Assembly: GCA_963707865.1 (NCBI GenBank)
Contig: OY970175.1
Span: forward strand, 694,028 to 758,027
Reading direction: 5' to 3'
DNA from: an uncultured bacterium
Lineage (GTDB): Bacteria; Patescibacteriota; Minisyncoccia; UBA6257; 2-01-FULL-56-20
DNA: 64,000 bases
The notes beneath the pieces are model-generated. The model was not told the origin of the DNA. It saw only the letters and a list, made by a program, of their open reading frames with translations, and did not search any database. This document shows, in pieces, positions 14,728-51,323 of the stretch (its first letter is position 1; the number at the start of each line of letters is the position of its first letter). Both the position numbers and the translations under genes were made by a program.

Positions 14728-14803
14728 AGTTAATGTTATTGAAGTATTTCATTTTAGGGACTTTTAATTATTACTATAATACAATACCGCGCCAGGCAAA
14801 TAC

Positions 14804-14833
14804 TTGTCAATTAAATTCTGCCTTTGCTATAAT
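14804..14833 (+). promoter_or_regulatory. Candidate sigma70-like promoter in the rny/gpmI divergent intergenic region
   Basis: TTGTCA (14804-09), 18-nt spacer, TATAAT (14828-33). The intergenic region is AT-rich. Confidence 0.3.
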
Positions 14834-14957
14834 GGCAGTACAGCTGGTGGGAAGGGTTCCAGTCGCGCGCTGGACTGGCATAAAAGATCCGGAAACGGGT
14901 CTTTTGTGTTTTCGCACAGCGTTCGCGCGACCGCGCGCGCGCGGTTATAATAGAACC

Positions 14958-16493
14958 ATGGCAAAGAAAACAACCGTCCTCATTGTCCTTGACGGCTGGG
15001 GCATCGGCCACAACAGCGAATCAAATCCGATCTATGTCGTGAAGCCGCCGGTGTTTGAATGGCTAAGAAACAATTATCCAATGACGAGCTTGCAAGCGTC
15101 GGGGATCGCGATCGGACTCCCCTGGGGCGAGGTCGGCAACAGCGAGGTTGGGCATCTCACGCTCGGCGCCGGCAAAGTCCTTTATCAGTATTATCCGAAG
15201 ATTATGATGGCCATCCGGGACGGGACCTTTTTCCAAAATCCGGTGCTCAAGGCGGCCTGCGCTCACGCACGGGAGCATAATGCCGCGATAAATTTCCTTG
15301 GGCTTCTCACGAAAGCCAACGTGCATGCTGCACTTGATCATTTGAAGGCGCTCATCAAAATGGCTCAGGCGGAACAGGTACCGAAGATCAATCTGCATCT
15401 CTTTGCCGACGGGAAGGACAGCCCGCTGCACACTGTGGAAAGTTTCCTCGGCGAACTGCCGCGCGAATATCTTGCTTCCCTCATCGGCCGATACTACGCC
15501 ATGGACCGGAACGGAACCTGGCAGCTCACGGAAACCGCCTATGACACCGTGACGGGCCAAGCGGGGAGGGTGGTGGATGATCCCGCGCCCATCATTAAGG
15601 CTACCTACCAAGAAAGCGGCACGGAGGAATATCTCCCGCCGATGCGCTTTGGAGAAGACAAGAAAATTCAGGATGGCGACGCCGTCATTTTCTTCAATTA
15701 CCGCGAGGATAGCATCCGGCAGCTCGCGTCGTCATTCATATTGAAAGATTTTGACAAATTCCCGACGCTCAAGTTCCAAAATCTATACGTTGCAACGATG
15801 AGCCACTATGATGACACATTCAACGTCCCCGTCATCTACCCCGCCGACATTGTGGAAAATCCCATCGGAAAAGTGATCTCCGACCTAGGCATGGTCCAGC
15901 TTCGTCTTGCCGAAACTTATAAATATGCGCACGTTACCTATTTCTTCAACGGCCTCCGCGAGCCGCCGTTCAAAGGAGAATACCGCACGCTCATCCCTTC
16001 AAACTCCAGCCTCCACCCCGAGGAACATCCGGAAATGATGGCGGGGGCGGTCACCGACCGGCTCCTTGAGGCGATTCAAAACAAAACGTTTGACTTTATC
16101 CTCGTCAATTACGCCAATCCCGACACCATCGGCCACACCGCCGATTACAACGCGGCCCTGGAAGCCGTGCGGGTTATTGACCGAGAAATCGGCCGCATCC
16201 TCAAGGTCGCGATAAACCCAGACACCATCCTCGCTATCACAAGCGATCACGGCCACATTGAGGAAATGATCAGTCCCGTGACAGGGCTTCCCGAGAGCCA
16301 GCATGCATCAAGTCCCGTGCCGCTTCATTTTGTCGCAGACCAATACCGAGGCAGAAAATTCATCAACGCTGATATACTTGAAGCCGAAACGCTCGGCTCT
16401 CTCGCCGACGTCGCCCCCACCCTCCTTGAAGCAATGGGCATAGAAAAACCAGCCGAGATGACCGGCCGCAGCCTGCTGGACCAGATCGCATAG
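14958..16493 (+). CDS. gpmI: 2,3-bisphosphoglycerate-independent phosphoglycerate mutase
   Basis: Starts MAKKTTVLIVLDGWGIGHNSESNP. The family motifs are conserved throughout. The ORF track's upstream extension from 14733 is not supported. Confidence 0.9.
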   Translation: MAKKTTVLIVLDGWGIGHNSESNPIYVVKPPVFEWLRNNYPMTSLQASGIAIGLPWGEVGNSEVGHLTLGAGKVLYQYYPKIMMAIRDGTFFQNPVLKAACAHAREHNAAINFLGLLTKANVHAALDHLKALIKMAQAEQVPKINLHLFADGKDSPLHTVESFLGELPREYLASLIGRYYAMDRNGTWQLTETAYDTVTGQAGRVVDDPAPIIKATYQESGTEEYLPPMRFGEDKKIQDGDAVIFFNYREDSIRQLASSFILKDFDKFPTLKFQNLYVATMSHYDDTFNVPVIYPADIVENPIGKVISDLGMVQLRLAETYKYAHVTYFFNGLREPPFKGEYRTLIPSNSSLHPEEHPEMMAGAVTDRLLEAIQNKTFDFILVNYANPDTIGHTADYNAALEAVRVIDREIGRILKVAINPDTILAITSDHGHIEEMISPVTGLPESQHASSPVPLHFVADQYRGRKFINADILEAETLGSLADVAPTLLEAMGIEKPAEMTGRSLLDQIA

Positions 16494-21431: not shown

Positions 21432-21515
21432 GCCGAGGTGATGGAAATGGCAGACATGTAGCGTTCAGGGCGCTATGGCCGCAAGGCCGTGAGGGTTCAA
21501 ATCCCTCCCTCGGCA
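21432..21515 (+). tRNA. tRNA-Leu (anticodon CAG), class II with long variable arm
   Basis: Hand-folded. Acceptor gccgagg / cctcggc (7 bp). D-arm with GG. Anticodon stem tagcg / cgcta with loop ttCAGgg. Variable arm ggcc-gcaa-ggcc. T-arm gaggg-ttcaaat-ccctc. Discriminator A. No encoded CCA. Confidence 0.85.
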
Positions 21516-21644
21516 CAAAATAAAAGCATGATGAAAAAAATTGAGGAGAAAGAACGGCCGCGAATAAAGCCGCCCGAGATACGGCCGCACACAACCACGC
21601 CCGGACAGAGGCCAGCTTTGGTTGCACTGAGGTCGCCGCACGCA

Positions 21645-23393
21645 ATGACCCATACCAAACAGGGTCGCAGTCCGGCGCCGCACCGCGAAATGATGCGGCC
21701 GAAAGAGGAACAAACCGCGGTAGTACCCAAGGAAGACACGCTCCGTTTCATACCGCTTGGCGGTCTGGAGGAGATCGGCAGGAATTGCTACTTCTTCGAG
21801 TATAAGGACGAGATCATCATTGTTGACGTAGGCATCCAATTTCCCGAAGAGGAAACGCCGGGTATTGATTATATTATTCCAAACATCGCATATCTTGAAT
21901 CCAAAAAGGATCGCATCCAAGCGATCCTCATTACCCACGGCCACTATGACCACATGGCCGCAATCCACTACCTTATAGAAAAACTGGGTAACCCCGTCAT
22001 CTACACGGCGGACTTTACAAAGGCAATGATAGAAAAACGGCACCAGGAATTCACGAATGTGCCGAAGCTGCGTTTCAAGGTGGTGAAACACGGCGACCAC
22101 GAGAAACTCGGCAGATACTTTGAGGCCGACTTCTTCAATGTTGACCACACAATCCCCGACGCGCTCGGCTTCGTATTGAAGACGCCCGTCGGCAACATGG
22201 TGAGCTTCGGCGATTTCCGGCTCCGAATGGACAAACAGGGCAAGCCGGTGGAAACGGAGATATTCGGCGAAATCGGCGCGCGCGGCATCCACACCGTCTT
22301 TATTGACAGCACGAATGCCTACAAACCGGGATTCTCATTCTCGGAAGAAACCGTAAGCGACAATCTCTACGAGCTCATGAGCCATGCGAAGGGGCGGCTC
22401 CTCATCGCCACATTCTCCTCGCTCCTCACGCGCCTTTTTGAGGTCGTGAAGCTCGCCGAAAAACTTGACCGGAAAGTTGCGCTGAATGGCAGGTCCATGA
22501 AGGACAATTTCCAAATCGCTGAGCAGCTTGGCTATCTCAAGACCAAAAAGGACGAAATCGTCCCGATTGAGGAGATCAATAAATATCCCGATAACAAAGT
22601 GGTCATCCTCACGACCGGATCCCAGGGAGAAAAGAACGCCGGACTCATGCGCATTGTGAACGGCGACCACAAGGTAGTGCGCCTCAAATCCACCGATACC
22701 GTCATTTTCTCATCGTCGGTCGTGCCGGGAAACGAGCGGAGCGTGCAGGCGCTACAAGATAACATCGCGCGGCAGGTGGACGAACTTTATAACGTAAAGA
22801 TCCTGGACATCCACGCCTCGGGTCACGCGCACCAGGAGGACCTGAAATTCGTGCTCCGGCTCATGAAACCAAAGTTCGCTGTCCCGATCCACGGATATTA
22901 CTTCTTCCGTTCGGCACTTAAAAAAATTGCGGTTGAGGTAGGCCTCCCCCGCGAAACGGTCAAGATGATGGACAACGGGCAAGTGGCGGAAATTACAAAA
23001 GACACGTTTACGATAACCAAGCAGACTGTGCCTGCGTCATATGTGATGGTGGACGGCTTGGGCGTCGGCGACGTGGAGGAAGTAGTGATCCGCGACCGGC
23101 GCGCGCTTTCTCAGGAAGGCATGGTCGTCATCATCCTCACTATTGACCAAACCAAGGGGCGGCTTCTCAAAAACCCCGATATTATCTCGCGTGGTTTCAT
23201 CTATCTCAAGGAAAACCAGGAGCTTCTGGAAGAAATTCGCAAGCGCATTCGCGCGCTCATTGTGCGCCTTCCCAGTTACCGCGAAGTGGAGCCCGATTAT
23301 CTAAAGACGCTCGTCCGCGATCAAGTCGGACAATTCCTTTATAACAAAACACGGCGCCGGCCGATGATCCTGCCCGTGATCATAGAAGTTTAG
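21645..23393 (+). CDS. rnj: Ribonuclease J (beta-CASP metallo-beta-lactamase RNase)
   Basis: ...LRFIPLGGLEEIGRNCYFFEY...ILITHGHYDHMAAI... The MBL HxHxDH motif, beta-CASP domain and C-terminal domain are present. The start could be ATG 21645 or 21690. The ORF-track start 21489 overlaps the tRNA and is rejected. Confidence 0.85.
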   Translation: MTHTKQGRSPAPHREMMRPKEEQTAVVPKEDTLRFIPLGGLEEIGRNCYFFEYKDEIIIVDVGIQFPEEETPGIDYIIPNIAYLESKKDRIQAILITHGHYDHMAAIHYLIEKLGNPVIYTADFTKAMIEKRHQEFTNVPKLRFKVVKHGDHEKLGRYFEADFFNVDHTIPDALGFVLKTPVGNMVSFGDFRLRMDKQGKPVETEIFGEIGARGIHTVFIDSTNAYKPGFSFSEETVSDNLYELMSHAKGRLLIATFSSLLTRLFEVVKLAEKLDRKVALNGRSMKDNFQIAEQLGYLKTKKDEIVPIEEINKYPDNKVVILTTGSQGEKNAGLMRIVNGDHKVVRLKSTDTVIFSSSVVPGNERSVQALQDNIARQVDELYNVKILDIHASGHAHQEDLKFVLRLMKPKFAVPIHGYYFFRSALKKIAVEVGLPRETVKMMDNGQVAEITKDTFTITKQTVPASYVMVDGLGVGDVEEVVIRDRRALSQEGMVVIILTIDQTKGRLLKNPDIISRGFIYLKENQELLEEIRKRIRALIVRLPSYREVEPDYLKTLVRDQVGQFLYNKTRRRPMILPVIIEV

Positions 23394-23680: not shown

Positions 23681-24667
23681 ATGAAACCAGTTTTAGTTTC
23701 GGGCATCAAACCAGAAGGGCATCAACATATCGGCAATTATTTAGGCGGGCTCAAAAATTTCGTTGATCTCCAGAATTCGGGTGATTACGATTGTTATTTT
23801 TTCCTTGCAGACCTTCACTCGCTCACAGAGGATTTTGAGCCGAAGAAAAAACGGGAACAGATCCTTGAGCTTACCGCAGAATATCTTGCGGTGGGGCTTG
23901 ATCAAAAACGGTCCACCCTCTTTTTGCAATCGCTCATCCCCGCGCACTCGGAACTCATGTGGCTCTTGACCACGATCACCTCTGAGGGAGAGTTGCGGCG
24001 AATGACGCAATACAAGGATAAGGTGCTCGTGAAAAAAACCGAGGCAAATACGGGACTCCTTATGTACCCCGTCCTCATGGCTGCGGACATTTTTCTTTAC
24101 GATGCCGCAGTCGTCCCCGTGGGCGAGGACCAATTACAACATCTGGAACTCGCGCGCACGCTCGCGCGGAAGTGGAACGCCCGCTTCGGCGAGACGTTCA
24201 TTGAGCCGAAAGGCCTGCTCACGAAAACGTCACGCGTGATGAGCCTGAAGGATCCCGCGAAAAAGATGTCCAAGTCGGAACCCCAGGGATGCCTTTTCCT
24301 TGACAACTCGCCCGAAGAAATAAAAGCCAAAATCACCCACGCGACGACCGACTCCGGTTCGGAAATAACCTACGACCCCGCGAAGAAGCCCGGCGTCGCG
24401 AATCTTTTGGAAATCTACGCGGCGCTCGCGCATACGGAACCGAAGATGATCGCGAAGGAATTCGCAGGTGAGAATTATTCCGCGTTCAAAAAACGGTTTG
24501 CGGAATTGGTCGCCGACCACTTCGCCGAATTCCGCGCGAAGAAAAAGGCGCTGCTAGAAAAACCCTCCGTGCTCGCGAACGTCCTAAAAGAAGGTTCTGC
24601 GTACGCCGCAAAAATCGCCGAAAAGAAAATAAAGGAGGTAAAAGAAAGGGTTGGGTTGGAAATATAG
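23681..24667 (+). CDS. trpS: Tryptophanyl-tRNA synthetase
   Basis: Class I aaRS with the HIGH-like motif EGHQHIGNYLG and KMSKS. 328 aa, TrpRS-sized. A candidate promoter is TTCACG-16-TATTAT at 23647-23674. Confidence 0.9.
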   Translation: MKPVLVSGIKPEGHQHIGNYLGGLKNFVDLQNSGDYDCYFFLADLHSLTEDFEPKKKREQILELTAEYLAVGLDQKRSTLFLQSLIPAHSELMWLLTTITSEGELRRMTQYKDKVLVKKTEANTGLLMYPVLMAADIFLYDAAVVPVGEDQLQHLELARTLARKWNARFGETFIEPKGLLTKTSRVMSLKDPAKKMSKSEPQGCLFLDNSPEEIKAKITHATTDSGSEITYDPAKKPGVANLLEIYAALAHTEPKMIAKEFAGENYSAFKKRFAELVADHFAEFRAKKKALLEKPSVLANVLKEGSAYAAKIAEKKIKEVKERVGLEI

Positions 24668-25127
24668 AACTCATAAATATAATACTTTCGTGCTCGACAT
24701 ACACATCAAGACTATCCCCCATAAAGAACATCGCTATCCGACGCTCGGAGATTATTGGCGCAACGCTGACGGGAAGCAGGAAATGCGGATATCAGAGATG
24801 GGAAATGATGATTATGCATTTATGATTGCCGTCCACGAATTGATTGAATGGTATCTCACGGGAAAGCGAGGCATCAAAGAAGAAGACATCAAGGCTTTCG
24901 ATGAAGCATTTGAGAAGGAGCGATTACGGGGTCTCCATACTGAAAAAGACGAAGCGGGCTTCGACCCCCGTGCACCATATGTGAAAGAACATAGCTTTGC
25001 CACGAATGTTGAAAAACAGCTTGCAAAAGAGCTGGGCGTGGACTGGGATAAATATGATGCGGGAATTAAAGCACTGTTCGCAAAATTTGAAGCATCAGGG
25101 GATACAAAGGCGGGGACGGAAAAATAA
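24651..25127 (+). CDS. Hypothetical protein (start uncertain)
   Basis: The ORF overlaps the trpS stop. An alternative start is MRISEMGNDD at ~24786. No recognisable domain. The local sequence is AT-richer. Confidence 0.3.
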   Translation: MGWKYRTHKYNTFVLDIHIKTIPHKEHRYPTLGDYWRNADGKQEMRISEMGNDDYAFMIAVHELIEWYLTGKRGIKEEDIKAFDEAFEKERLRGLHTEKDEAGFDPRAPYVKEHSFATNVEKQLAKELGVDWDKYDAGIKALFAKFEASGDTKAGTEK

Positions 25128-25175: not shown

Positions 25176-28100
25176 CTACACCCTCCGTATCCCGATCCAG
25201 ACCTCCTGACCATCAATTTTGGTCGCTTCCTCGGCGCTGAATTTTTCGAAATGCCCGTATTCTATTGACTTTGCACCAACGGCCACGCGAAGCACTGCTT
25301 CTTGCTTCACAACCATTCCCCTTATTGCCGCAGGGAGATCAAGCATGAGTACGATCGCGTCCTTGGGCGCAAGTCCCGCCTCTTGCCGCAGACCCTGCAC
25401 CATTCGCGCAATTTCGCGCAATAATCCCTTCTCTCGAAGCTCTGGGGTTATCACGGTGTCTAGCTTCATCAGCTCTTCAAGGGTCGCGTCAAACTCAACA
25501 CTTTGAACATTTACCTCTTCAGCGAGAAGAACAGTGGAGCCCTCTGATAGAGTCACCGAATCCGCTGTTTTGACGATAAGCGTCTGGAGGGGTTGCCGAA
25601 TCTTAATGCCGGCTTCCGCGCGCTTCGCAAGCCCCAAACTCGCGATGCGGCGCACTTCGGCCATTTCTTTAATCAATTGTTTATTCTCCTTTTTATCGGG
25701 AGAAACTTCAGGGCTCGGCCACTCGGCAAGATGAACCGACTCCTCCACTTCCTTACCGCTGCCATATGGCTTCAATATTCCATAAAGTTCTTCGGCGAGG
25801 AACGGCACGAATGGTGCGATAACCTTGCTCGTTGTAAGAAGACATTTATACAACGTTGTGGGAAAGGCAGCATCCTTCCGTTTCCGGCTGCGGCGGAGAT
25901 ACCACGTGGAAAGGTCGTCAATGTATTCCTGGATCGTCCGCGTAGCACGCACGGTGTCATATGCCGAGAGATATTCGGTCACGAACTTCACGAGCTCCGC
26001 CGTCCGCACTGCAATCCATCTATCAAGAACTTTTTCTGATTCTGATGAAGGGTGCTCCTTGGACGAAAGCATCTTCGGCTCAATATATGTCGTGAAGAAT
26101 TTCCCTACGTTCCAGAGAATAACAACTACTTTCCGATAAATATTCTCCACTGCTTTCTCAGAAAAATTCACATTATCCGCCTGCATCACGACGGAATTCA
26201 TGAGATAGAACCGCAAGCTGTCCGCGCCATATTTTTCTATCACAATGTTCGGATCGGGGTAATTGTTCTTTGATTTGCTCATCTTTGATCCGTCCTCCGC
26301 AAGAATCGTACCGGTGGTCACTACATTGTCAAACGGTGCTTTGCCGAAAAGGATCAGGGAAATCACGTGCATCACATAGAACCACGCGCGCGTCTGCGCG
26401 ATGTATTCCGCGACGAATTGCGCCGGGAAGCGGCTTTCAAAAACTTTCTTGTTCTCAAATGGGTAATGATACTCGGCGAACGGCATGGAACCCGCTTCCA
26501 CCCACGAGTCAAAGATCTCCGGCGTCCGCTTCATGGTTTTTCCACACGCACTGCACGCAAACGTTATCTCGTCAATATACGGCCGGTGCAGGTCCGCCTC
26601 GCCGCCGTCATTTCGCGGGAGGACATTTAGTTCCATCTTCCGTATTTCCGCGAAGGTGATGAAATCCTTTTTTTGCCGTTCTTTTTCCTCTGTCGCGCGT
26701 TTTTCGCTCCAACCCTCGGCAGCATGGAAAAGCATCCATGCCGGATATTCGTGTGTTATAAGGAGAATGTTTTTCCCAACGTATTTCGCCTCGCATTCCG
26801 TGAGAAATTCCCACGCGCGGGCACGCACGTCGCGTAACGACTCCCCTCCTTCGGGCCGTTTTTCAAACCGTTCCTGGTAGGTCGGGAAAAGATCAAAATA
26901 TTTCTTGTCCAAATGCCCGGTGAGCACCGGTCCAAGGTGGATCTCCTCGAGGCGCTTGTCAAACCTCACCTTTTCCCCGCCAAGCACGGAGGCGACGATC
27001 TCTTCGGTCTCCACGGTGCGCGTCACATCCGACGAGATCACGAGGTCAATTTTTTCCCCACGCTTCGCGAGCTCCGCCTTGAAGCGTTTAATGGAGTCCT
27101 CTGCCTCCTTCCGGCCGCGCGGCGTGAGGTGCAAATATTTCCGCTGACCGGAATCAATGACGTTGAACATATTACTCTCTGCTTCCCCGTGCCGCATGAC
27201 CCAATAATTGTTTTTTGAGTGGCCGGCGAGTTTTGAAAGGTCTTCCAAGCTGCCCGCGACCTCTTCGCGACCACAACCTCCGCACTTCCATACCGGAATG
27301 GGATTCCCCCAATAACGATTTCTGGAAATATTCCAATCCGGCGCCGCCTCCACGCTTTTTTCGTAACGGCCATGCTTCAAGTGTTCCGGAAACCAGTTGA
27401 TCTCGCGGTCGTTTGACTTCAATAGCTGTGGTTTTATTTTCTGGATGTTCATGAACCACGCGGGGATGGCGTTGTAGAAAAGCACGGTGCCGCAGCGCCA
27501 GCAATGCGGATACGAGTGCGTATACATCTCGCGCTTGAACAACAACCCGCGATTTTGCAAGTCCTCTTTAATGATTTTTTCAGAAGCCTTGAAGTATTTG
27601 CCCCGCACGAGTTCCGGCGCCTTCTCGTTGAATATCCCCTTTTCATCCAGAAGCGGCACAACGGGCAATCCCACGCGCATGCCGAGCTCATAATCGTCTT
27701 CACCATAAACGACCGCCGTGTGCACGATGCCGGTGCCCTCGTCCGTCGTTACAAAACCCGCATGATACACCTTATAGGACTTATCACCCTTCATCGATGC
27801 AATCTCATAAAGTGGTTCGTAGCTAACCCCGCGCAATTGACTTCCGGGAAATGTGACTCTGGGATTTTCGAGGCCGTATGCTTTTGCCCTACTGACCTCG
27901 ACAATCAAACCTTCGCCGTCTCGTTCGTAAACTCCATATTCTAGTTCGGAACTTATGGCTAGCGCGACATTGCCGGGAAGTGTCCAAGGGGTCGTTGTCC
28001 ATGCCAACAGAAACGTGTTGGGTGGCAAATTGAGTCCCTTTGTTTGACCTTCGATGACAGTCTTAAACTTCACCGTCACCGATTCCTCCGACACATCCTT

Positions 28101-28676
28101 ATAGCTATTGTCCATCGCCACCTCAAAATTTGAGATTGGGGTTTCGCAGCGCGGGCAATACAAGAGTACTTTCCGCCCTTCGTAAACGAGTTTCTTTTTA
28201 TATATTTCTTTGAATGCCCACCAGACGGATTCCATATAATTCACATCCATCGTCTTATAGGAATCGTCAAACTCCACCCAGCGCGCGATGCGTCGGATCA
28301 TTTTTTTCCATTCCGAGGCATACTCCAAAACCATGCTTCGGCAGGTCTCGTTGAATTTTTTGATGCCAATCTCTTCTATTTGTTTCTTCCCGGAAATGCC
28401 GAGTTTGCGTTCAACAATTTCTTCAATCGGCAGCCCGTGGCAATCCCATCCCCACCGCCGGCGCACGAATCGCCCGTTCATCGTCTGAAACCGCGGCACT
28501 ACGTCCTTTATCGTAGACGCCAAGAGGTGCCCGTAATGCGGGAAACCGGTCGCGAACGGAGGCCCGTCATAAAAAGTGAAAGGTTTCCCGTTTTGGGTCT
28601 TCTCCAAGCTTTTCTTAAAAATATGCCGGGAATCCCAGAATTTCAGAACCTCCTCTTCGGAAGGATTTTGCGCCAT
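25176..28676 (-). CDS. ileS: Isoleucyl-tRNA synthetase (type 2, eukaryote-like) carrying an inserted histidine-phosphatase-fold domain
   Basis: HIGH (PHYGHLL), CP1 editing domain (TTPWTLPGNVALAIS) and KMSKS are present. The zinc knuckle is split: CGGCG ... [~215-aa insert with RHGE, LTPRGRKEA, SSDVTRTVET, LITHE motifs] ... CSACGK. The whole is one continuous 1166-aa ORF. Confidence 0.9.
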   Translation of the reverse strand: MAQNPSEEEVLKFWDSRHIFKKSLEKTQNGKPFTFYDGPPFATGFPHYGHLLASTIKDVVPRFQTMNGRFVRRRWGWDCHGLPIEEIVERKLGISGKKQIEEIGIKKFNETCRSMVLEYASEWKKMIRRIARWVEFDDSYKTMDVNYMESVWWAFKEIYKKKLVYEGRKVLLYCPRCETPISNFEVAMDNSYKDVSEESVTVKFKTVIEGQTKGLNLPPNTFLLAWTTTPWTLPGNVALAISSELEYGVYERDGEGLIVEVSRAKAYGLENPRVTFPGSQLRGVSYEPLYEIASMKGDKSYKVYHAGFVTTDEGTGIVHTAVVYGEDDYELGMRVGLPVVPLLDEKGIFNEKAPELVRGKYFKASEKIIKEDLQNRGLLFKREMYTHSYPHCWRCGTVLFYNAIPAWFMNIQKIKPQLLKSNDREINWFPEHLKHGRYEKSVEAAPDWNISRNRYWGNPIPVWKCGGCGREEVAGSLEDLSKLAGHSKNNYWVMRHGEAESNMFNVIDSGQRKYLHLTPRGRKEAEDSIKRFKAELAKRGEKIDLVISSDVTRTVETEEIVASVLGGEKVRFDKRLEEIHLGPVLTGHLDKKYFDLFPTYQERFEKRPEGGESLRDVRARAWEFLTECEAKYVGKNILLITHEYPAWMLFHAAEGWSEKRATEEKERQKKDFITFAEIRKMELNVLPRNDGGEADLHRPYIDEITFACSACGKTMKRTPEIFDSWVEAGSMPFAEYHYPFENKKVFESRFPAQFVAEYIAQTRAWFYVMHVISLILFGKAPFDNVVTTGTILAEDGSKMSKSKNNYPDPNIVIEKYGADSLRFYLMNSVVMQADNVNFSEKAVENIYRKVVVILWNVGKFFTTYIEPKMLSSKEHPSSESEKVLDRWIAVRTAELVKFVTEYLSAYDTVRATRTIQEYIDDLSTWYLRRSRKRKDAAFPTTLYKCLLTTSKVIAPFVPFLAEELYGILKPYGSGKEVEESVHLAEWPSPEVSPDKKENKQLIKEMAEVRRIASLGLAKRAEAGIKIRQPLQTLIVKTADSVTLSEGSTVLLAEEVNVQSVEFDATLEELMKLDTVITPELREKGLLREIARMVQGLRQEAGLAPKDAIVLMLDLPAAIRGMVVKQEAVLRVAVGAKSIEYGHFEKFSAEEATKIDGQEVWIGIRRV

Positions 28677-28759: not shown

Positions 28760-30469
28760 TTATATTTTTTCCGGCGCACGGATACCTAAGAGATCGAGCG
28801 AAAACTTCAAAGCGTCAGCGGCAACTTTCGCAAGAAGAAGCCTTACATCACGTCGCTCTTTATTTTCATCCTTTAAAATCGGCGTTGTTTCATAGAACTT
28901 GTTCGCCGCAACGGCAAGTTTATACATATAAGTAACAAGGCCGCTCGGAGTATTGAGCTCGCCCGCCCGAAGGACAACACTGGGAAGCTCAATGAGTTTG
29001 CGGACAAGCGCGAGTTCCACCTCAGTATCCAAAAATTCAAAATGGAATTCTGCGCCATGCGTTTTTCCCGAAAGGTCAATTGACGATTTTCGCAGAATGC
29101 TCCGCAAACGGGCATACGCGTACTGCACGTAAGGCCCCGAATCGCCCTCAAACGAAAGCGACTTGTCAAAATCAAAAATGATATCCTGGCCGGGGCTCTG
29201 CTTCAAAATGGAATATTTGACTGCGCCGACGGCAATGCTTTCGGCCACCTCCTCGCGCTCCCTTTCGTCCAGATCGCTCTTCTCGCTTATGTGTTCCCGC
29301 AGTTTTGCTTTGACTTGGTCAAGCATTGATTCGGCGATGATCACGTCGCCGGTGCGCGATGCCATCTTACCGCTCGGGAGCCGCAACATGCCATGCCCCA
29401 CATGGCGCGTTTTCGCTGCAACCTCCGGAAAGATAAGTTCCATCACCTTCAAAAGCACTTTAAAGTAATCATTGATCTCATTGCCGGTCACAATGACGGA
29501 AAGGTCTAGTGGATAGAGCTCGAATTTCTTCTTGTTCAGGCCAAGCTCTTTCGCTTCGTACGTCGGCAGTCCTTTTGAATTCACGAACACCCGCGTATGC
29601 AGGCCATATTTTTCTCCGGGGAACACGATCACGCCGTCGCTCTCTATAAAGATGTCCTTGTGGGCCGCGACCACCGCCATCCCCTCCTTCGCCATCTCCC
29701 CTTCGTAAAAATAATCATTGAACTTCGTGCCAAGGCGGGCATAGACCGTTTCAAAATATGCCAAGCTCCACTTCCGGCCCTCATCGTAAAGCTTGTTTAT
29801 TTCCTGATCCGTCCTTGAATATATCTTTTCGTTTATTCCAATAATGGCCTCCTTCGCATCCGATTCGCCTTCGTATGCCTTGGAACCAAGCGCATACGCC
29901 CTACCGAGGAATTCCATTTTATTTTCTACACTACTCGCTTCGCTCTGCATTTTTTGCATGCCCCATATTGCCTTTGCAACGTGGAGACCGACGTCGCCCT
30001 GGTAATTCGCGCGGATTACTTTCGCCCCGAGCGCTTCATAAAGACGCGCGAACGATTCCCCAATCGCGTTGCTCATAAGATGCCCGATATGGAAAAGCTT
30101 GAAAGGGTTCGGGTCGGTGAATTCCACCATCACGGTCTTCCCCTTCATGTTCTTGCTTACGCCATAGTGCTCGTCGCCCGCAATCTTCTTGATTTCTCCC
30201 TGCACCGTTTTTTTGCTCAGCCAAAAATTGATGAAACCGGGTTCCGCTGCCTCCACTTTTTCAAAAAATCCTTTTGGTGCTGCCTTCGCCACCTCTGCCG
30301 CAAGGCGCGTTGCGCGCGCGAGCGGTTTTTCGGCGCCCGAAAGCCGCATCGCAATATTCGTTGCATAGTGCCCGAAATTCTCCTTCTCTGGTACGAGGAT
30401 CTCAATGGTGGGCAATGCGCCGCCGACCGCTTGTTCCAAAATTTTCACGATCTTTTCCTTCATTCCCAA
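28760..30469 (-). CDS. argS: Arginyl-tRNA synthetase
   Basis: HIGH motif FHIGHLMSNAIGE and the ArgRS C-terminal anticodon-binding domain. TTG start codon. Confidence 0.9.
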   Translation of the reverse strand: MGMKEKIVKILEQAVGGALPTIEILVPEKENFGHYATNIAMRLSGAEKPLARATRLAAEVAKAAPKGFFEKVEAAEPGFINFWLSKKTVQGEIKKIAGDEHYGVSKNMKGKTVMVEFTDPNPFKLFHIGHLMSNAIGESFARLYEALGAKVIRANYQGDVGLHVAKAIWGMQKMQSEASSVENKMEFLGRAYALGSKAYEGESDAKEAIIGINEKIYSRTDQEINKLYDEGRKWSLAYFETVYARLGTKFNDYFYEGEMAKEGMAVVAAHKDIFIESDGVIVFPGEKYGLHTRVFVNSKGLPTYEAKELGLNKKKFELYPLDLSVIVTGNEINDYFKVLLKVMELIFPEVAAKTRHVGHGMLRLPSGKMASRTGDVIIAESMLDQVKAKLREHISEKSDLDEREREEVAESIAVGAVKYSILKQSPGQDIIFDFDKSLSFEGDSGPYVQYAYARLRSILRKSSIDLSGKTHGAEFHFEFLDTEVELALVRKLIELPSVVLRAGELNTPSGLVTYMYKLAVAANKFYETTPILKDENKERRDVRLLLAKVAADALKFSLDLLGIRAPEKI

Positions 30470-30499
30470 TTCTCCTTATTTTACCGCTATAATGGATGT

Positions 30500-30937
30500 A
30501 TGGAAACCATTGCGGAAAACCGCCGAGCGCGGTTTGATTATGAGATTTCGGACACCTACGATGCCGGCATAGAACTTTTCGGCCACGAGGTGAAAAGCGC
30601 AAAAAGCGGCCGCTTTCAGATAGCGGGCGCGCGGGTTTTGATCCGCAATGGCGAGGCGTGGCTCGTGAACTCCCACATCCCGCCCTACCAGCCGAAGAAC
30701 ACCCCATCGGGATACGAAGAAGACCGCTCGCGAAAGCTTTTGCTCACGAAAGATGAAATAAAAGCGCTGACCGGCGCGCTTCAAGAAAAAGGACAGGTGC
30801 TCGTCCCCCTTCGCGCATTCCTGAAACACGGATTCATAAAATTGGAGCTTGGGCTCGGCCGCACAAAGAAAAAGTCCGACAAGCGCGAGGCGCTCAAAAA
30901 GCGCGCGCATGAGCGCGAGATGCGCGGCGCCGAATAG
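30500..30937 (+). CDS. smpB: SsrA-binding protein SmpB
   Basis: METIAENRRARFDYEISDTYDAGIELFGHEVKS... (145 aa). Only the C-terminal part of the 327-aa track ORF is real. Confidence 0.85.
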   Translation: METIAENRRARFDYEISDTYDAGIELFGHEVKSAKSGRFQIAGARVLIRNGEAWLVNSHIPPYQPKNTPSGYEEDRSRKLLLTKDEIKALTGALQEKGQVLVPLRAFLKHGFIKLELGLGRTKKKSDKREALKKRAHEREMRGAE

Positions 30938-35007: not shown

Positions 35008-35152
35008 ATTCCCCAGCTTACGCTTCGAGGGGCCATATGTATGTGCAGAGTACCCGAATCCATTGCCAGACCCCCTTCACTTGTGAAATACCAGATTTCT
35101 CTGGCCTGCCTAGGGTATACTCCTGATTCCACAAAAATTCAATCTCAGAACG

Positions 35153-35466
35153 GGTGGAGACGGGCGGAATCGAACCGCCGTGTAAAGGTAATGCGCGTGG
35201 GCCGTCTACGAGCGTGTCTAGTGGAACACTAGCAACGTGATCCTAATTTTCGCGCGTGGCATAGGATCGTCCGCCGCGGCTAGTCCCCTTATATAAGACC
35301 GGCTATGAGCCCAAGGAACCCGGGCTCGCCGATCCCGGCATTACGCGTAAGCGAACGCCGGAGCTGTAACTCTATTAGAGTTGGCAGTTATGTTTGTGCA
35401 GCAGTTACGTCGCTGCCCTCGGCCCGCAAACCCACTGCTTACCTTTATCAAAGCCAGTGCGTCCCC
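35153..35466 (-). ncRNA. ssrA: tmRNA (ssrA), ~314 nt
   Basis: Hand-derived. 5' GGGGACG pairs with 3' CGUCUCCACC, giving the G3:U70 alanine identity pair. T-arm GGCGG-UUCGAUU-CCGCC. Ends ...CUCCACC with the terminal A not encoded. A candidate tag reading frame is GCC AAC UCU AAU AGA GUU ACA GCU CCG GCG UUC GCU UAC GCG UAA (ANSNRVTAPAFAYA). A candidate promoter is TTCACA-17-TATAAT at 35484-35512 on minus. Confidence 0.75.
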
Positions 35467-38106: not shown

Positions 38107-39894
38107 TTATTTTAAGAATTTTTTCATTTTTTCCACCGGCCAGGCGTTTATTATATCACCTTTTACCGCCCAGCCGCGACGAGCCTGCGCAATGCCCCAT
38201 TCCAAAAGAGAAAAGTGTGCGGCGGCGTGAGCGTCGGAATCTATGGCCATAGGCACGCCGGCTTCCACACACTTCCGTACGTACTCGTCTTTAAGATCAA
38301 GTCGTTCGGGAAGCGCGTCAATCTCAAGAATGGTGCCGGTTTTCTTCGCGTGCGCGATGATCGCTTCCACGTCTATGTCGTACGGCGGGCGGCGGTTGAT
38401 GATGCGGCCAGTCGGATGGAAAAAGATATCCACATGTGGGTTCGCCATCGCGCGTTTCACACGCTCGGTCTGCGCCGCGCGCGGGAGATTAAAATGTGAG
38501 TGGACCGAAACGCCGACGACGTCCAACTTCGCCAAGATGGAATCGGGAAGGTCCAGCGTTCCGTCTTTTAAAATGTCGCACTCGGTTCCTTTGAGAAGAA
38601 CGATTCTCCCCGCGAACTTTTTGTTCAGCCGGTCAATCTCCGCCATCTGCTTTAAAATCCGAACCTCGTCCAAACCGTGCGTCATGGCGAGCCGTTTCGT
38701 GTGATCGGTGATCGCAATGTAACGGAGCCCATGCGCCATCGCCGCCTTCGCCATGCCCTCTATGGAATCCGTCCCGTCGGTCCAGTCGGTCTGTGTTTGG
38801 AGGTCCCCCTGGAGATCGTCGTAGCCGATAAGTTTCGGCAGTCGATGCACCTGTGCGGCTTCCAATTCGCCCGTATTCTCGCGTAGCTCCGGTTCAATAT
38901 AATCCATGCCGAACGCCTTGTAGAGTTCCTCTTCGGTCGCGCCCGCGATCATTTTTTCACGAACATCTTTTTTACTGCTGCCCGCCGTATCCCTCCTGCC
39001 ATCCACGCCGCGACCACCCTTTAGGGAAAACAATCCGTACTCGTTCAGTTTCCATCCCCTCGCGACGGCAATCTTGCGCAGCGCGACGTTGTGATCCTTG
39101 GAGCCGGTAAAATAATTGAGCGCGGCACCGTAAGATTCCTTCGGCACGACCCGGAGATCAACGTTGATCCCCGATTTTAATTTCACCGATGATTTCGTTT
39201 CGCCATGCGCGATGACCGACACCACATCGGGCATGGAAGCAAAGTGGTCCATCACCTCCTTCGGTTTTGCGGAAACGACGAGGATGTCCGCGTCGCCAAT
39301 CGTTTCCTTCCGGCGGCGCACGGAACCCGCGGCGATCGCCTTCGTAACGCCCGCGACCTTCGCAAGATCCGCCTCAATGGCACGAATCTGCGGCATCATA
39401 TAGCCCAAGAGGAATCGGCTGCCTGAACTCTTGGCAAACCCGATACCTTTTAGAATTTTCTCCTCGCTTTTCTCGCCAAACCCCGTGAGTTTCGCGATCT
39501 TGCCCGCCTTCGCCGCTTTCTCAAGATCGGCGAGGTCGCTTACGCCCAATTTTTGATAAAGCTTTTTGATTGATTTCGGGCCAAGCCCCTCCACGCGCGA
39601 TAAGCTTTCAAGATTCACCGGCGTTTTCTTCTTTAGATCCTCATAGTATTTCACCTTGCCGATCCGTACGAACTCCTCTATTTTTTCCGCAATGGAAACG
39701 CCCACGCCGGGAATCTCTTTGAGCGCTTTTATCCCGCCCCGCTCATATATATCGGCCACTTCCTCTTCAAGTCCCTCTATTGCCACCGCCGCTTTTTGAT
39801 ATGCTCGCGGCTTGAAGGGAACGTTCTGCATCTCCAAATATTCCCCGATTTCACGGAGAAGCTCGGCAACCGATTGGTTGGAAACTTTCTGCAT
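38107..39894 (-). CDS. polX: DNA polymerase X family protein with C-terminal PHP domain
   Basis: N-terminal HhH/pol-beta-like region (GIGVSIAEKI, GLGPKSIKKL), nucleotidyltransferase core, and a C-terminal PHP phosphoesterase domain (ITDHTKRL..., HSHF...). Confidence 0.85.
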   Translation of the reverse strand: MQKVSNQSVAELLREIGEYLEMQNVPFKPRAYQKAAVAIEGLEEEVADIYERGGIKALKEIPGVGVSIAEKIEEFVRIGKVKYYEDLKKKTPVNLESLSRVEGLGPKSIKKLYQKLGVSDLADLEKAAKAGKIAKLTGFGEKSEEKILKGIGFAKSSGSRFLLGYMMPQIRAIEADLAKVAGVTKAIAAGSVRRRKETIGDADILVVSAKPKEVMDHFASMPDVVSVIAHGETKSSVKLKSGINVDLRVVPKESYGAALNYFTGSKDHNVALRKIAVARGWKLNEYGLFSLKGGRGVDGRRDTAGSSKKDVREKMIAGATEEELYKAFGMDYIEPELRENTGELEAAQVHRLPKLIGYDDLQGDLQTQTDWTDGTDSIEGMAKAAMAHGLRYIAITDHTKRLAMTHGLDEVRILKQMAEIDRLNKKFAGRIVLLKGTECDILKDGTLDLPDSILAKLDVVGVSVHSHFNLPRAAQTERVKRAMANPHVDIFFHPTGRIINRRPPYDIDVEAIIAHAKKTGTILEIDALPERLDLKDEYVRKCVEAGVPMAIDSDAHAAAHFSLLEWGIAQARRGWAVKGDIINAWPVEKMKKFLK

Positions 39895-45770: not shown

Positions 45771-46568
45771 ATGGCAAAGAAACCCGTTATTTATACAAAA
45801 CCATCGTTGATAGCGAAGCTCAAAGAAATCGCCGCGATGGGTTGGATACCGAATGCCCGACGAGGCAACGCCGGAGGCGTAGGTAATACGCTTGAAGACC
45901 TGCTTGGCATAAGAGAAAATAACTTGCCGATTCCCAACGCCGCAGAGTGGGAACTGAAAGCGCAGAGAATAAATACCACGTCGCTCACAACTTTATTCCA
46001 TATCGAGCCATCGCCCCGCGCCATCGGTTTTGTGCCAAAAGTTTTGTTGCCATTGTACGGATGGCCCCACGAAGAAGCAGGGAAGAAATACGGAAAAAAC
46101 GAGATGAGTTTTCGCCAAACGATTCACGGCGGATCGCGGAGCGACAGAGGTTTTAAGGTTGTGATAGATCGCAAAGAGAAAAAGATTTTAATCTCGTTCG
46201 ACGCGAAAAGTGTTGATCCAAGACATAAGACCTGGCTCGAATTAGTTAAAAAGCGCGTGGGCTTAGGCGAACTTAATCCCCAACCATATTGGGGATTCGA
46301 TGATTTAGAACATAAAGCCGGAACGAAATTGCTTAACGCTTTTTACGTTCAGGCGGAGGTGAAGATAGAGCGCAAGAAGGAATTTTATAAATATACGAAA
46401 GTGATGATGCTACAAAAATTTAGTTTCGACGGATTTTTGAAAGCGTTGGAGGAGGGTAAGATACTCGTTGATTTCGATGCTCGCACAGGCCACAATCACG
46501 GAACGAAATTTAGAATGAGGCAGGATTGCTTGCCGATGCTTTACGAGAAAAACACCATCATTTTATGA
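45771..46568 (+). CDS. Type II restriction endonuclease, MvaI/BcnI-like (recalled family similarity)
   Basis: Starts 3 nt after the MTase stop. The pattern GGVGNTLEDLLGIRENN...EWELKAQR...LTTLFHIEP matches my recollection of the MvaI/BcnI family N-terminal region. Those enzymes pair with N4mC SPPY MTases. This is not database-verified. Confidence 0.5.
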   Translation: MAKKPVIYTKPSLIAKLKEIAAMGWIPNARRGNAGGVGNTLEDLLGIRENNLPIPNAAEWELKAQRINTTSLTTLFHIEPSPRAIGFVPKVLLPLYGWPHEEAGKKYGKNEMSFRQTIHGGSRSDRGFKVVIDRKEKKILISFDAKSVDPRHKTWLELVKKRVGLGELNPQPYWGFDDLEHKAGTKLLNAFYVQAEVKIERKKEFYKYTKVMMLQKFSFDGFLKALEEGKILVDFDARTGHNHGTKFRMRQDCLPMLYEKNTIIL

Positions 46569-47833
46569 AAACTAGGCTAGAGGCGAAAAAGGCTAGTTGG
46601 CTAAATAAGTACAAAGGAGATATCGAGCTAGAGCCTTTCTTTCAGAGAGGAACAGTTTGGAGCGATGATAAAAAACAGTATTTTATAGACTCGCTTTTAA
46701 AGGGCTGGGGAACGCCAAAAATTTTCCTTTGGGAAACGGGTAAAGATTCTTATGCCTGTTTAGATGGCAAACAGCGTTTGACCAGTCTATTTAAATTTAT
46801 GGCCGACAGACTGCCATTAAAAGAAGATTATTCTACTGGATATGGCGGTAAAAAATATACCGAGTTACCAGTTAGCGTCCAAGATGCGATCGACGATTAT
46901 GAATTTTCGGTAGAAATATTAGAAGCCAAAGACGACGAAGTGATAGAACTCTATAAGAGGTTACAAGGGGGCACTCCTTTAAATTTCGGAGAGAAGTTAT
47001 TTGCGATGTCGGGAAATATGAACGATTTTATTAAACGCCGGCTAAACACAAAAACATTCTTTAAGGAAAGAGTATCGCTTCCAGATACTAGATACTCGCA
47101 CTATGCTGTTTGCGCGCAATTATGCTTATTGAGCATAAAAGGCGCAAAAGAAGACTTGAAGCTAAAGAACCTAGAGAAGTTTTTTAGAGATTATCGCGGC
47201 TTCAATACCAAGAGCCCTGAAGCAGATAAAATTTTCGACGTTATAAAACATCTTGAAAAGGCGTTCCCTAACAAGAGCGATCCGGCCCTACGAAATAGGG
47301 CGAATGTCGTATCTATATTTCATCTAATAGCAGATATATCTGCGCGTGGCGATATTTCCGGGAGAGAAGAAGAAATAGGTGCGTTCTTTAGAAAATTTGT
47401 GAAGGATATTCAGAAAGAGTTTGATAAAAAGCCCGAGAACCGCGATCCCGCCATATTGAGTTATCAATCGGCGGTTACGCAAGGAGCAGACAAAATTAAG
47501 TCTATTAATATCAGGCACGGCGTTTTATTAAAAAAACTTGAGTCGAAAAATAAATTTTTCTATGGCCTTCTTCATCCAGCTTCTCCGCAGGACAAATTTA
47601 TGAAAATGTATAACGACGCACGAAAGAAGCTAAGGATCACCACTGTTGGTGGATTTGATGCGTGGCTTATTAGTAATAAAGGCCTGTCAGATATAGGGTG
47701 CTCGAAAGCTCGTGCTGGAACGGAAACTTTTATAGGACATATTCGCAATTGTATCCATTATTCTGAACATGGAACTGTTCCAGTAAAGGACTTAGATAGG
47801 GCCATCAAAATTTTGAAAGAGATATTAAGGTAA
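46565..47833 (+). CDS. DUF262-domain protein (GmrSD / ParB-like nuclease family; candidate type IV restriction or defence nuclease)
   Basis: ATG overlaps the REase stop (ATGA). The N-terminal DUF262 hallmark is ...YACLDGKQRLTSLFKF... (the DGQQR motif). The C-terminal region is compatible with a DUF1524/His-Me-like domain. Confidence 0.65.
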   Translation: MKTRLEAKKASWLNKYKGDIELEPFFQRGTVWSDDKKQYFIDSLLKGWGTPKIFLWETGKDSYACLDGKQRLTSLFKFMADRLPLKEDYSTGYGGKKYTELPVSVQDAIDDYEFSVEILEAKDDEVIELYKRLQGGTPLNFGEKLFAMSGNMNDFIKRRLNTKTFFKERVSLPDTRYSHYAVCAQLCLLSIKGAKEDLKLKNLEKFFRDYRGFNTKSPEADKIFDVIKHLEKAFPNKSDPALRNRANVVSIFHLIADISARGDISGREEEIGAFFRKFVKDIQKEFDKKPENRDPAILSYQSAVTQGADKIKSINIRHGVLLKKLESKNKFFYGLLHPASPQDKFMKMYNDARKKLRITTVGGFDAWLISNKGLSDIGCSKARAGTETFIGHIRNCIHYSEHGTVPVKDLDRAIKILKEILR

Positions 47834-47875
47834 AAATTTTTGCTCCCGGCCATGCGGCCGCGAGCTATTTTTTGT

Positions 47876-48160
47876 GGGGGAGGAATTTGGGCGCGCCATA
47901 CGCGAAGCCCCGAAGCCCGAACGTAAGTGAGCGGCTGAGGGGCTGAGCACACCATTTCGGAGGGGGTCTAGCGGAGTGAAGTAGGACTTGTGATTTTCAG
48001 AGACGAGGGTCGAAAAGATCAGAGTTTGCAGAGCAAACTGGACTTGCTACCCCTTCAATTCGATGCAGGGCAATTGAAGGGGTATTTGAAGGGGTAAGAG
48101 GGGTATCAAAATTCAGGAATTTTGGATAAAATACTCTCGAGCAGTCTCATATAAGCACAC
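47876..48160. repeat. 285-bp perfect inverted repeat, right copy (IR-R)
   Basis: Reverse complement of IR-L (44414-44698). The two copies flank the MTase-REase-DUF262 cassette. Confidence 0.9.
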
Positions 48161-48328
48161 CAAGATAAGATTTTCCTCAACTCTACCAATTTTTTCGCGC
48201 GCCGCGCGGAGCGCGGCATAATGCGGCACGGGGGTAAATTCGATTTCTCTATTCCTCAGAGATACGTTCGAGCCGAAAATTTTTTGTACGGATGTCTTTT
48301 TGAGGGAGAGGGTGGGGGTAAGAGAGAT
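48158..48328. repeat. 171-bp inverted duplicate of the tRNA-Arg 3' tip plus the recombinase 3' end
   Basis: The reverse complement of 51003-51173 equals 48158-48328 (checked by hand). The copy begins with CACCA, which is the tRNA-Arg 3' end. It overlaps the outer end of IR-R by 3 nt. Confidence 0.85.
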
Positions 48329-48333
48329 AGCTA

Positions 48334-49416: not shown

Positions 49417-49422
49417 CTTCGA

Positions 49423-49626
49423 TTACTTGAGCAGGTTATTAACGGAAACGCCTAGAGCCTTAGCAATCTTCTCGACGTTTTTAAGAGAAATATTCCATAT
49501 GCCGCGCTCGATCTGGCTAATATAGGTCGGGTGGACGTTCAAAAGCTTGGCGAGGTCGCCCTGCGACATCCCCTTGTCGAGGCGGAGCCGCTTCATTCTC
49601 TTACCGAATTTGATAGATATATCCAT
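49423..49626 (-). CDS. XRE-family helix-turn-helix transcriptional regulator
   Basis: ...KRLRLDKGMSQGDLAKLLNVHPTYISQIERG... is the classic Cro/CI-type HTH. 67 aa. Confidence 0.8.
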   Translation of the reverse strand: MDISIKFGKRMKRLRLDKGMSQGDLAKLLNVHPTYISQIERGIWNISLKNVEKIAKALGVSVNNLLK

Positions 49627-49706
49627 GCCTATAAGTGCTCTTGTAAATATGGTAACAGGTGCGTTACTATTGTTCTATATAGAGGTAGGCCTCTATAATA
49701 AAAGAT

Positions 49707-51182: not shown

Positions 51183-51243
51183 GGAATTGAACCTCAATCT
51201 TCTCCTTCGGAGGGAGACGTCCTATCCGTTGAACTACGAGGGC
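51169..51243 (-). tRNA. tRNA-Arg (anticodon CCG), CCA encoded
   Basis: Minus-strand read GCCCTCGTAGTTCAACGGATAGGACGTCTCCCTCCGAAGGAGAAGATTGAGGTTCAATTCCTCACGAGGGCACCA. Acceptor 7 bp, anticodon loop CUCCGAA, T-arm TGAGG-TTCAATT-CCTCA. Confidence 0.8.
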
Positions 51244-51323
51244 CCTACTCTGCACGCATGTGTTTGGCTGAACTCGTCTTCGCGCGAGGGCAAACGTATT
51301 CGCGCAGAGCAGGGCTACGTCCG

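Follow-up and report, generated by a model that had tools for sequence, protein, structure and literature searches.

Our analysis concerns the isoleucyl-tRNA synthetase (IleRS) gene, ileS, of an uncultured bacterium of the Patescibacteriota (class Minisyncoccia), carried on a 64,000-nucleotide stretch of DNA that we refer to as the window (GenBank assembly GCA_963707865.1, contig OY970175.1, positions 694,028 to 758,027 of the forward strand). The results support, with high confidence, a model in which a functional IleRS holds, within the zinc knuckle of its CP3 subdomain, an intact histidine-phosphatase fold that was captured from a neighboring gene. With less assurance, we favor the view that the insert is an active phosphatase serving as a dedicated partner of the synthetase. 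A sequence-only reading of the window had described the protein as a eukaryote-like IleRS whose zinc knuckle is interrupted by a PGAM-like phosphatase domain, a description that stood up in most of its parts, although some points of that reading needed correction. What is new here is the argS-phosphatase-ileS module and the capture of the neighbor gene into CP3.

The ileS gene (25176..28676, minus strand) is the sole IleRS gene of the window. It is one uninterrupted open reading frame (ORF) with an ATG start, encodes 1166 residues and runs in frame through the insert of about 210 residues, as had been claimed. The assignment to the eukaryote-like, or type 2, enzymes is likewise borne out: the protein scores 807 bits against the TIGR00392 equivalog (cut-off 621.4), in two stretches parted by the insert, and is colinear with the IleRS of Thermus thermophilus (1ILE; E 1.7e-218), which aligns with residues 7-482 and 695-1024 of the query. 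On the whole protein, Pfam finds tRNA-synt_1, Anticodon_1, DUF5915 and His_Phos_1 (residues 492-660, E 5e-25). The aminoacylation site has a HIGH-type signature, PHYGH (28527..28541, minus strand; residues 46-50), and the KMSKS loop lies at 26271..26285 (minus strand; residues 798-802); P46, H47, Y48, G49 and H50 of the former and K798-S802 of the latter are invariant in 41 relatives. The same holds for the motifs of the CP1 editing domain (27504..28106, minus strand; about residues 191-391), namely W226-T232 (WTTTPWT), G314-H319 (GTG.VH) and D328, and this region matches the isolated IleRS editing-domain structures 1WK8 and 1WNY. The anticodon-binding domain occupies 25578..26024 (minus strand; residues 885-1033; Pfam Anticodon_1, E 4e-26). 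Because the HIGH, KMSKS and editing motifs are all invariant, the protein fits a fully functional IleRS, and with these motifs intact we take it to be the organism's working isoleucyl-tRNA synthetase.

The position of the insert can be fixed to the residue. Alignment with 1ILE places it between the two Cys pairs of CP3, and thus in the zinc knuckle, as the sequence-only reading had it. The N-terminal half of the knuckle (27222..27290, minus strand; residues 463-485) contains C465 and C468 in the motif CGGCG at residue 465 and aligns with Thermus 'WVCQACG'; the C-terminal half (26520..26594, minus strand; residues 695-719) opens with DLHRPY at residue 695, contains C708 and C711 in CSACG at residue 708 and aligns with Thermus 'DPHRPYVDQVELAC-ACGG'. 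Both Cys pairs, C465/C468 and C708/C711, thus align with the two pairs of the Thermus enzyme, and H697, R698, P699, C708 and C711 are invariant in the 41 relatives. Between the two halves, about 212 query residues replace Thermus residues 479-488, a segment of about 10 residues. In insert-free IleRS of Patescibacteria, '...KKAG' runs directly into 'DLHRP...', and for this reason we set the bounds of the insert at residues 486-694, or 26595..27221. The range proposed earlier, 26577-27221, was therefore correct at its 27221 end; its 26577 end takes in the six host residues DLHRPY, and the true bound is 26595. In six family members (P0158, P0163, P0164, P0172, P0198 and P0209), one or both CP3 Cys pairs beside the insert have been lost, so zinc binding appears unnecessary for holding the phosphatase in place. 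The zinc-binding motif of Thermus IleRS sits in its CP3 subdomain (PMC7191050). CP3 is peripheral, its topology varies among the IleRS of Thermus, Candida and S. aureus, and only the Thermus enzyme has the zinc-binding motif (PMC7191050).

The inserted domain (26595..27221, minus strand; 209 residues) is made up of a PhoE-like core (residues 486-660) and a tail of helix, strand and linker (residues 661-694). Its identity as a histidine phosphatase with the full catalytic set, also part of the sequence-only reading, is well supported. Submitted on its own, it matches Pfam His_Phos_1 (PF00300) far above threshold (E 1.9e-26; 93.4 bits against a gathering threshold of 21.7), and every motif that had been quoted for it was located: RHGEAESN at residue 495, LTPRGRKEA at 517, SSDVTRTVETEEI at 548 and LITHE at 639. 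Searched as a profile against the PDB, the insert matches PhoE/YhfR best (E 3e-32), followed by the phosphoserine phosphatase PspA (8e-29) and the alpha-ribazole phosphatase CobC (3e-25), and R495, H496, R553, E578 and H642 align with the PhoE motifs. The catalytic pair Arg495-His496 (27189..27194, minus strand) aligns with the RHG motif of PhoE, which makes His496 the predicted phosphoryl acceptor; the second active-site histidine, His642 of LITHE (26751..26753, minus strand), is a histidine in 282 of 282 embedded copies. An AlphaFold2 (AF2) model of the insert is a compact alpha/beta domain (pLDDT 91.8, pTM 0.89), and Foldseek relates it, with probability 1.00, to PspA, to the glucosyl-3-phosphoglycerate phosphatase GpgP and to PhoE (TM 0.65-0.72), with TIGAR and a riboflavin-pathway histidine phosphatase among the further best PDB neighbors. 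Model and structural matches together give the insert the alpha/beta/alpha histidine-phosphatase fold.

One part of the sequence-only reading that failed is the label 'PGAM-like', if it is taken literally. A glycolytic cofactor-dependent phosphoglycerate mutase (dPGM) embedded in IleRS could be suspected, since His_Phos_1 is the dPGM superfamily and the insert has weak NCBIfam matches to dPGM models. However, its scores fall far below the cut-offs (dPGM_arch, 54 against 225 bits; PRK01295, 34.5 against 316; GpmB, 39.8 against 261), true dPGM structures align with the insert profile only over positions about 6-112, and the Pfam match stops at profile position 165 of 194, so that the C-terminal tail of the mutases is absent. 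The window also encodes a cofactor-independent phosphoglycerate mutase (iPGM; 14733..16493, plus strand; Metalloenzyme, 3e-59; iPGM_N, 4e-53), so the genome has a glycolytic mutase of its own, independent of the IleRS insert. An embedded dPGM is thus extremely improbable in our judgment, and PhoE, PspA and CobC are closer relatives. Nor does the insert reach the NCBIfam equivalog cut-off of any of these families: it lies below those for dPGM, GpmB, CobC, PspA and SixA, in each case by a wide margin, resembling both CobC (45.2 against 162.9 bits) and PspA (40.8 against 350 bits) as a member of neither. Judged by these comparisons, the insert is best described as a small PhoE/GpmB-type phosphatase of a separate subfamily and not as a mutase, with 'PGAM-like' right for the superfamily only.

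The pattern of conservation suggests that the domain is active. Across about 283 embedded copies, R495, H496, R553, E612 and H642 are unchanged wherever they are covered, the R and H of RHG in all 278 copies that include these columns, and position 578 is Glu or Asp in 281 of 282. In 32 diverged full-length sequences, whose inserts are 33-58% identical, no change occurs at the RH dyad or the second Arg, at the Glu of 'RLxE', in the 'GE(S/T/N)' motif or at the second His. Over the 41 closer relatives, mean pairwise identity is 45% in the phosphatase core, 73-82% in the Rossmann halves, 61% in CP1 and 40% in the C-terminal domain. The insert is accordingly under weaker constraint than the essential core, yet its active site is untouched, and by its preserved catalytic residues it looks catalytically active. 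One alternative is that the domain is a catalytically dead module that merely binds a phosphometabolite as a sensor or stabilizes CP3. The loss of flanking Cys pairs in some family members would fit such a role, as the domain could replace the zinc knuckle structurally, but the retention of every catalytic residue across these copies, the general-acid Glu included, is a pattern typical of active enzymes, and we consider a dead module very improbable.

The architecture is widespread. Among the best full-length relatives (53-100% identity; sources NCBI, ENA, JGI and Logan), 120 of 120 combine the IleRS domains with PF00300; where they are named, they belong to Minisyncoccia, Paceibacterota, Jorgensenbacteria, Liptonbacteria, Doudnabacteria, 'Saccharibacteria' or the 'Patescibacteria group'. 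An exhaustive HMMER search with the insert alone returned dozens of representatives of 50%-identity clusters, 1100-1275 residues long, in which the domain stands at about residue 480-750. When GTDB species genomes were scanned for the peptide pattern MRHGEAES, 215 relatives came up, and 80 loci were kept; in all 80, the domain lies inside a long IleRS-type ORF of about 1150-1320 residues, unless a contig end cuts it, and every organism-level record title among them reads Patescibacteria. Within a large Patescibacteria clade, the combination of IleRS and phosphatase is the norm, and public databases already contain it. The sequence-only reading knew of no synthetase with an embedded phosphatase; full-text searches, largely outside the subscription journals, found no publication on an IleRS or any other synthetase with an embedded histidine phosphatase, and none on an argS-phosphatase-ileS module. 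Relatives are usually named 'class I tRNA ligase family protein' by NCBI and not isoleucine--tRNA ligase, even though the window protein passes TIGR00392. As a consequence, ileS may be scored as missing in automated metabolic reconstructions.

This distribution also settles whether the join inside ileS could be an assembly chimera. Nothing at this locus speaks for a mis-join, although some unrelated database matches do look chimeric: P0032 (an epimerase), P0040 (a PHP domain) and P0253 (a piece of adenylate kinase) were set aside as chimeric assemblies on a reading of their sequences. Against a chimera, the identical join recurs at identical residues in the 120 top relatives and the 80 GTDB species genomes, several GTDB copies lie on contigs or chromosomes of 0.5-0.9 Mb, and one relative identical to the window protein lies on a contig of 898,885 bp. 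Because hundreds of independent assemblies share the join, the chimera explanation falls away, its probability in our estimate being close to nil, and the earlier claim that no fusion artefact is involved holds. A separate oddity is P0241 (JGI, 11-kb contig), an IleRS with an IS200-like Y1 transposase domain (residues 340-461, by position within CP1) in addition to the CP3 phosphatase; after CP3 it has a GNAT acetyltransferase C-terminus and no visible KMSKS motif, so that either a chimera or a paralogue in decay is possible.

The origin of the insert is indicated by its free-standing homologues. The closest of these are proteins of 187-197 residues, 34-39% identical to the window insert, and in three sister lineages (L086, L088 and L089/L090) their gene is bracketed by argS and an insert-free ileS (938-968 residues), with recO following. 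L086 has spacers of 4 nt and 3 nt, and L089 has a 10-nt overlap. A metagenome scan with the free-standing sequences yielded 80 loci, 34 with embedded and 46 with free-standing copies. IleRS is immediately downstream in 41 of these 46 (the downstream flank exceeds 400 nt in 40 loci), and all 37 with enough flank have ArgRS upstream. Spacers of free-standing copies are mostly between -10 and +16 nt, and such short or overlapping spacers suggest translational coupling. The embedded state has the same surroundings: in the 80 GTDB loci, ArgRS is upstream of ileS in 54 (on the same strand in 50) and recO is downstream in 34. In the window, argS (28760..30469, minus strand; ArgRS of 569 residues; Pfam Arg_tRNA_synt_N, tRNA-synt_1d and DALR_1) is the conserved partner on the upstream side of the operon, at a distance of 83 nt from the start of ileS.

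Comparison of the ends suggests how the capture would have proceeded. The free-standing protein begins with 'MN(T/N)YFILRHG' and ends at the strand 'GEVRKIK', and the insert begins with '...KNNYWVMRHG' and reaches 'AEIRKMEL' before a linker of about 13 residues; the N-terminal motif 'N-x-Y-x-x-(L/M)-R-H-G' is common to free-standing, inserted and fused copies. Almost the whole free-standing frame, from residue 2 to the last beta-strand, would thus have been spliced between the CP3 Cys pairs. In quick neighbor-joining trees, the two states fall in phylogenetic blocks but require about 5 changes of state on the IleRS body and about 7 on the domain. We propose a grouping, 'IleRS-linked PhoE-like phosphatase of Patescibacteria', for a gene between argS and ileS, a domain inside IleRS CP3, or a fusion to ArgRS; the window belongs to it by virtue of its CP3-embedded domain and of argS 83 nt upstream. 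Some free-standing copies also have NUDIX genes nearby. In L088 (3915..5004), a NUDIX hydrolase and a 205-residue ORF without a Pfam match lie between argS and the phosphatase gene, and L086 and L089 each have a NUDIX gene behind PolX, a few kb upstream. Such genes might point, weakly, to nucleotide metabolism, or each could simply be a MutT-like repair gene.

The subfamily has joined other hosts as well, and the non-IleRS hosts among the closest relatives of the insert are ArgRS, Sua5/TsaC and a ValRS-like protein. The ArgRS::phosphatase fusion (P0174; L081/L082, 4001..6070) is found on a 70-kb contig in two assemblies, in the order SmpB / argS::phosphatase, recO and a DUF7619 protein, which is the arrangement of the window's clade except that ileS is absent from the locus. 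Its phosphatase follows the normal '...APEHM' end of ArgRS, and loss of the stop codon across a 4-nt spacer would give exactly such a product. The second fusion (P0193; L083, 977..2140) joins a C-terminal phosphatase of the same subfamily to a protein of the Sua5/YciO/YrdC (TC-AMP synthase) family, and the closest relative of this phosphatase is an IleRS-embedded copy (49% identity). Sua5/TsaC makes threonylcarbamoyl-AMP (TC-AMP) and does not handle tRNA directly. The third (P0257; L084/L085, 366..3851) is a ValRS-like class I synthetase with four His_Phos_1 copies, one of which comes after the strand 'WWGHRIPVW', by eye homologous to the insertion point in IleRS.

What the phosphatase does can be approached through its family's chemistry and its partners. 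In the mechanism that we propose, the synthetase part would charge tRNA-Ile as usual, and the insert would hydrolyze a terminal phosphomonoester by way of a phosphorylated His496; Arg495, Arg553 and His642 would hold the phosphoryl group, and Glu578 would be the general acid. The phosphatase would serve ATP-dependent, adenylate-forming tRNA enzymes, a proposal we make because its subfamily shares operons with ArgRS and IleRS and has been fused, independently, to ArgRS and to Sua5/TsaC; this conserved operon linkage and the two fusions lend indirect support to a link with synthetase chemistry. The likeliest role would be the clearing or recycling of a small nucleotide-type product, AMP or possibly pyrophosphate (PPi). 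We prefer a substrate of this type because the ArgRS, Sua5/TsaC and ValRS-like hosts have a tRNA-related task in common, for which they use ATP and release PPi and AMP, but we hold the assignment to such a by-product of adenylate chemistry only weakly and regard it as doubtful. No family-I PPase signature was found in the window, which is 7% of the genome, so this says little. Ap4A, put forward in the sequence-only reading, is an unlikely substrate: the enzyme family moves a terminal phosphoryl group to histidine, and a terminal phosphomonoester is what Ap4A lacks. We infer the catalytic activity, the coupling to synthetases, whether physical or functional, and the class of substrate.

In its strongest form, the proposal would give aminoacylation in Patescibacteria a true accessory activity. 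The phosphatase would be dedicated to IleRS and ArgRS as their partner, a translationally coupled subunit first and a covalent CP3 insert later. Its target would be the acceptor end of tRNA or else a nucleotide such as AMP, or PPi, that the adenylate reaction consumes or produces, and its action would change the kinetics, direction or quality control of charging. If true, a class I synthetase would possess a third catalytic site, beside those of synthesis and editing. We advance it as a tentative possibility, for which the evidence at hand still leaves the balance on the negative side.

Several observations weigh against a dedicated partnership. Operon linkage can reflect co-expression only. 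CP3 is peripheral and structurally hypervariable (PMC7191050), and may do no more than tolerate insertions. Evolution is faster in the phosphatase core than in that of the synthetase (45% against 73-82% pairwise identity). In the ArgRS fusion, the domain lies behind the C-terminus of the anticodon-binding domain, with no conserved geometry to the catalytic site. The Sua5 fusion comes from a single short contig of 3.7 kb, and in P0257, which we have downgraded, the fourth copy is broken by an in-frame TAA at a coverage of about 2x; this protein may be a pseudogene or the result of a sequencing error. The closest characterized relatives use varied small molecules, so that sequence fixes no substrate, and in the AF2 model of the full-length IleRS (pTM 0.59) the placement of the domain relative to the synthetic active site is too uncertain to be read.

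Some of these points would be expected of a hitch-hiker: an ordinary housekeeping enzyme for a small molecule such as phosphoserine, a sugar phosphate or a cofactor precursor, a bystander in the argS-ileS operon that became trapped in a tolerant loop during genome streamlining and is tied to IleRS by co-expression alone. Its nearest solved relatives are indeed metabolic phosphatases (PhoE, PspA, CobC, GpgP and the riboflavin-pathway histidine phosphatase), CP3 differs in topology among the Thermus, Candida and S. aureus enzymes, the domain evolves faster than the synthetase core and is far along the chain from the catalytic domain in the ArgRS fusion, and, after its capture, nothing short of a precise deletion could remove it from ileS. 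However, a bystander would not obviously explain why every free-standing copy with enough flank is followed directly by ileS (41 loci) and preceded by argS (37 of 37), with spacers that mostly overlap or are near zero, nor why the hosts other than IleRS among its closest relatives are all ATP-dependent, tRNA-related enzymes. At the L081 locus, moreover, ileS is gone and the phosphatase stayed, joined to ArgRS. A hitch-hiking phosphatase is in our view the main alternative, albeit one to which we give a rather low probability.

A further alternative is that the phosphatase acts on a macromolecule: it would take a 3'- or 2'-phosphate or a pyrophosphate off a tRNA acceptor end that has been damaged or modified by a toxin, or would reverse an inhibitory HipA-type phosphorylation of the synthetase. 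The hosts IleRS, ArgRS and the ValRS-like protein bind tRNA, and Sua5/TsaC belongs to a tRNA-modification pathway. The histidine phosphatase superfamily includes the protein phosphatases SixA, PGAM5 and Sts-1, and known toxins include some that phosphorylate synthetases and some that add pyrophosphate to the CCA end of tRNA. Yet the closest relatives of the insert are small-molecule phosphatases, and its match to SixA is weak (25 bits against a cut-off of 74.5). No PADLOC defence model matched, and the neighborhood suggests no toxin or RNA-repair system; Sua5/TsaC, as noted, makes TC-AMP without direct handling of tRNA. We consider this explanation improbable.

To place the dedicated-partner proposal among known systems, the nearest counterpart of the host is the type-2 IleRS of T. 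thermophilus (1ILE, 1JZQ), which has the same colinear synthetase with HIGH and KMSKS signatures, CP1 editing domain, anticodon-binding domain and two CP3 Cys pairs. It differs in having about 10 residues between the CP3 halves, where the window protein has an independent enzyme domain of 209 residues. Those of the insert are the broad-specificity phosphatase PhoE/YhfR of Geobacillus stearothermophilus (1EBB, 1H2E), PspA (4IJ5) and CobC (6NRU), its best profile and fold matches (best E 3e-32; TM about 0.66-0.71), which share with it the RHG...R...E...H set and a compact size without the segments specific to dPGM. These, however, are free-standing metabolic enzymes, whereas members of the insert's subfamily invariably occur in linkage with ileS or argS or within IleRS. 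A precedent for an IleRS with an extra enzyme domain is NCBIfam NF040702, 'ileS_w_GNAT', in which that domain is an N-acetyltransferase; the window protein, at 288 bits against a cut-off of 1999, is not a member. The best NCBIfam match of the insert is NF005567 (E 2.5e-15), a bifunctional RNase H/CobC-like acid phosphatase of the Rv2228c type, in which a PhoE/CobC-like phosphatase is likewise joined to a nucleic-acid enzyme. That protein is an end-to-end fusion with another partner, and the insert, at 57 bits against a cut-off of 326, is again not a member.

Another known system is the CP1 editing domain, an established case in which the Rossmann fold of IleRS, ValRS and LeuRS has taken up an entire catalytic domain. 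CP1 is universal and ancient and acts on the synthetase's own products, whereas the CP3 phosphatase is lineage-specific and has a traceable free-standing source gene. Aminoacyl-tRNA synthetases are among the most conserved enzymes, and to our knowledge catalytic domains inserted into their core are, the editing domain aside, very rare. In Patescibacteria, also called the candidate phyla radiation (CPR), an apparently active phosphatase is nonetheless kept tied to IleRS, as an adjacent gene or in the same polypeptide, with its active site preserved throughout. This linkage points to an unrecognized requirement of translation or of nucleotide economy in ultra-small, host-dependent cells. The steps from neighbor gene to end-to-end fusion to internal insertion also form a natural series for the study of domain capture. 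A cultured member of the class Minisyncoccia now exists (PMC12281837).

Finally, some features of the surrounding DNA deserve mention. Beyond argS, the window contains an ORF with SmpB-like sequence (30400..30937, plus strand), a tmRNA (35152..35466, minus strand) and a PolX-type polymerase with a PHP domain (38107..39894, minus strand). PolX and SmpB recur beside argS in related loci, which indicates that this neighborhood is conserved. On the other side of ileS, an ORF of 158 residues without a Pfam match (24651..25127, plus strand) lies between trpS and ileS. Further away, a tRNA-Leu(CAG) gene (21432..21516) is overlapped by the mechanically assigned start of an ORF at 21489..23393 (plus strand), which from its sequence we take to be RNase J and whose true start is probably further downstream. 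A large serine recombinase (49707..51182, plus strand; Resolvase, Recombinase and Zn_ribbon_recom) abuts a tRNA-Arg(CCG) gene (51169..51243, minus strand), GC content at 46-48 kb drops to 0.42 from about 0.52 elsewhere, and the region 46000..51250 may be an integrated mobile element.

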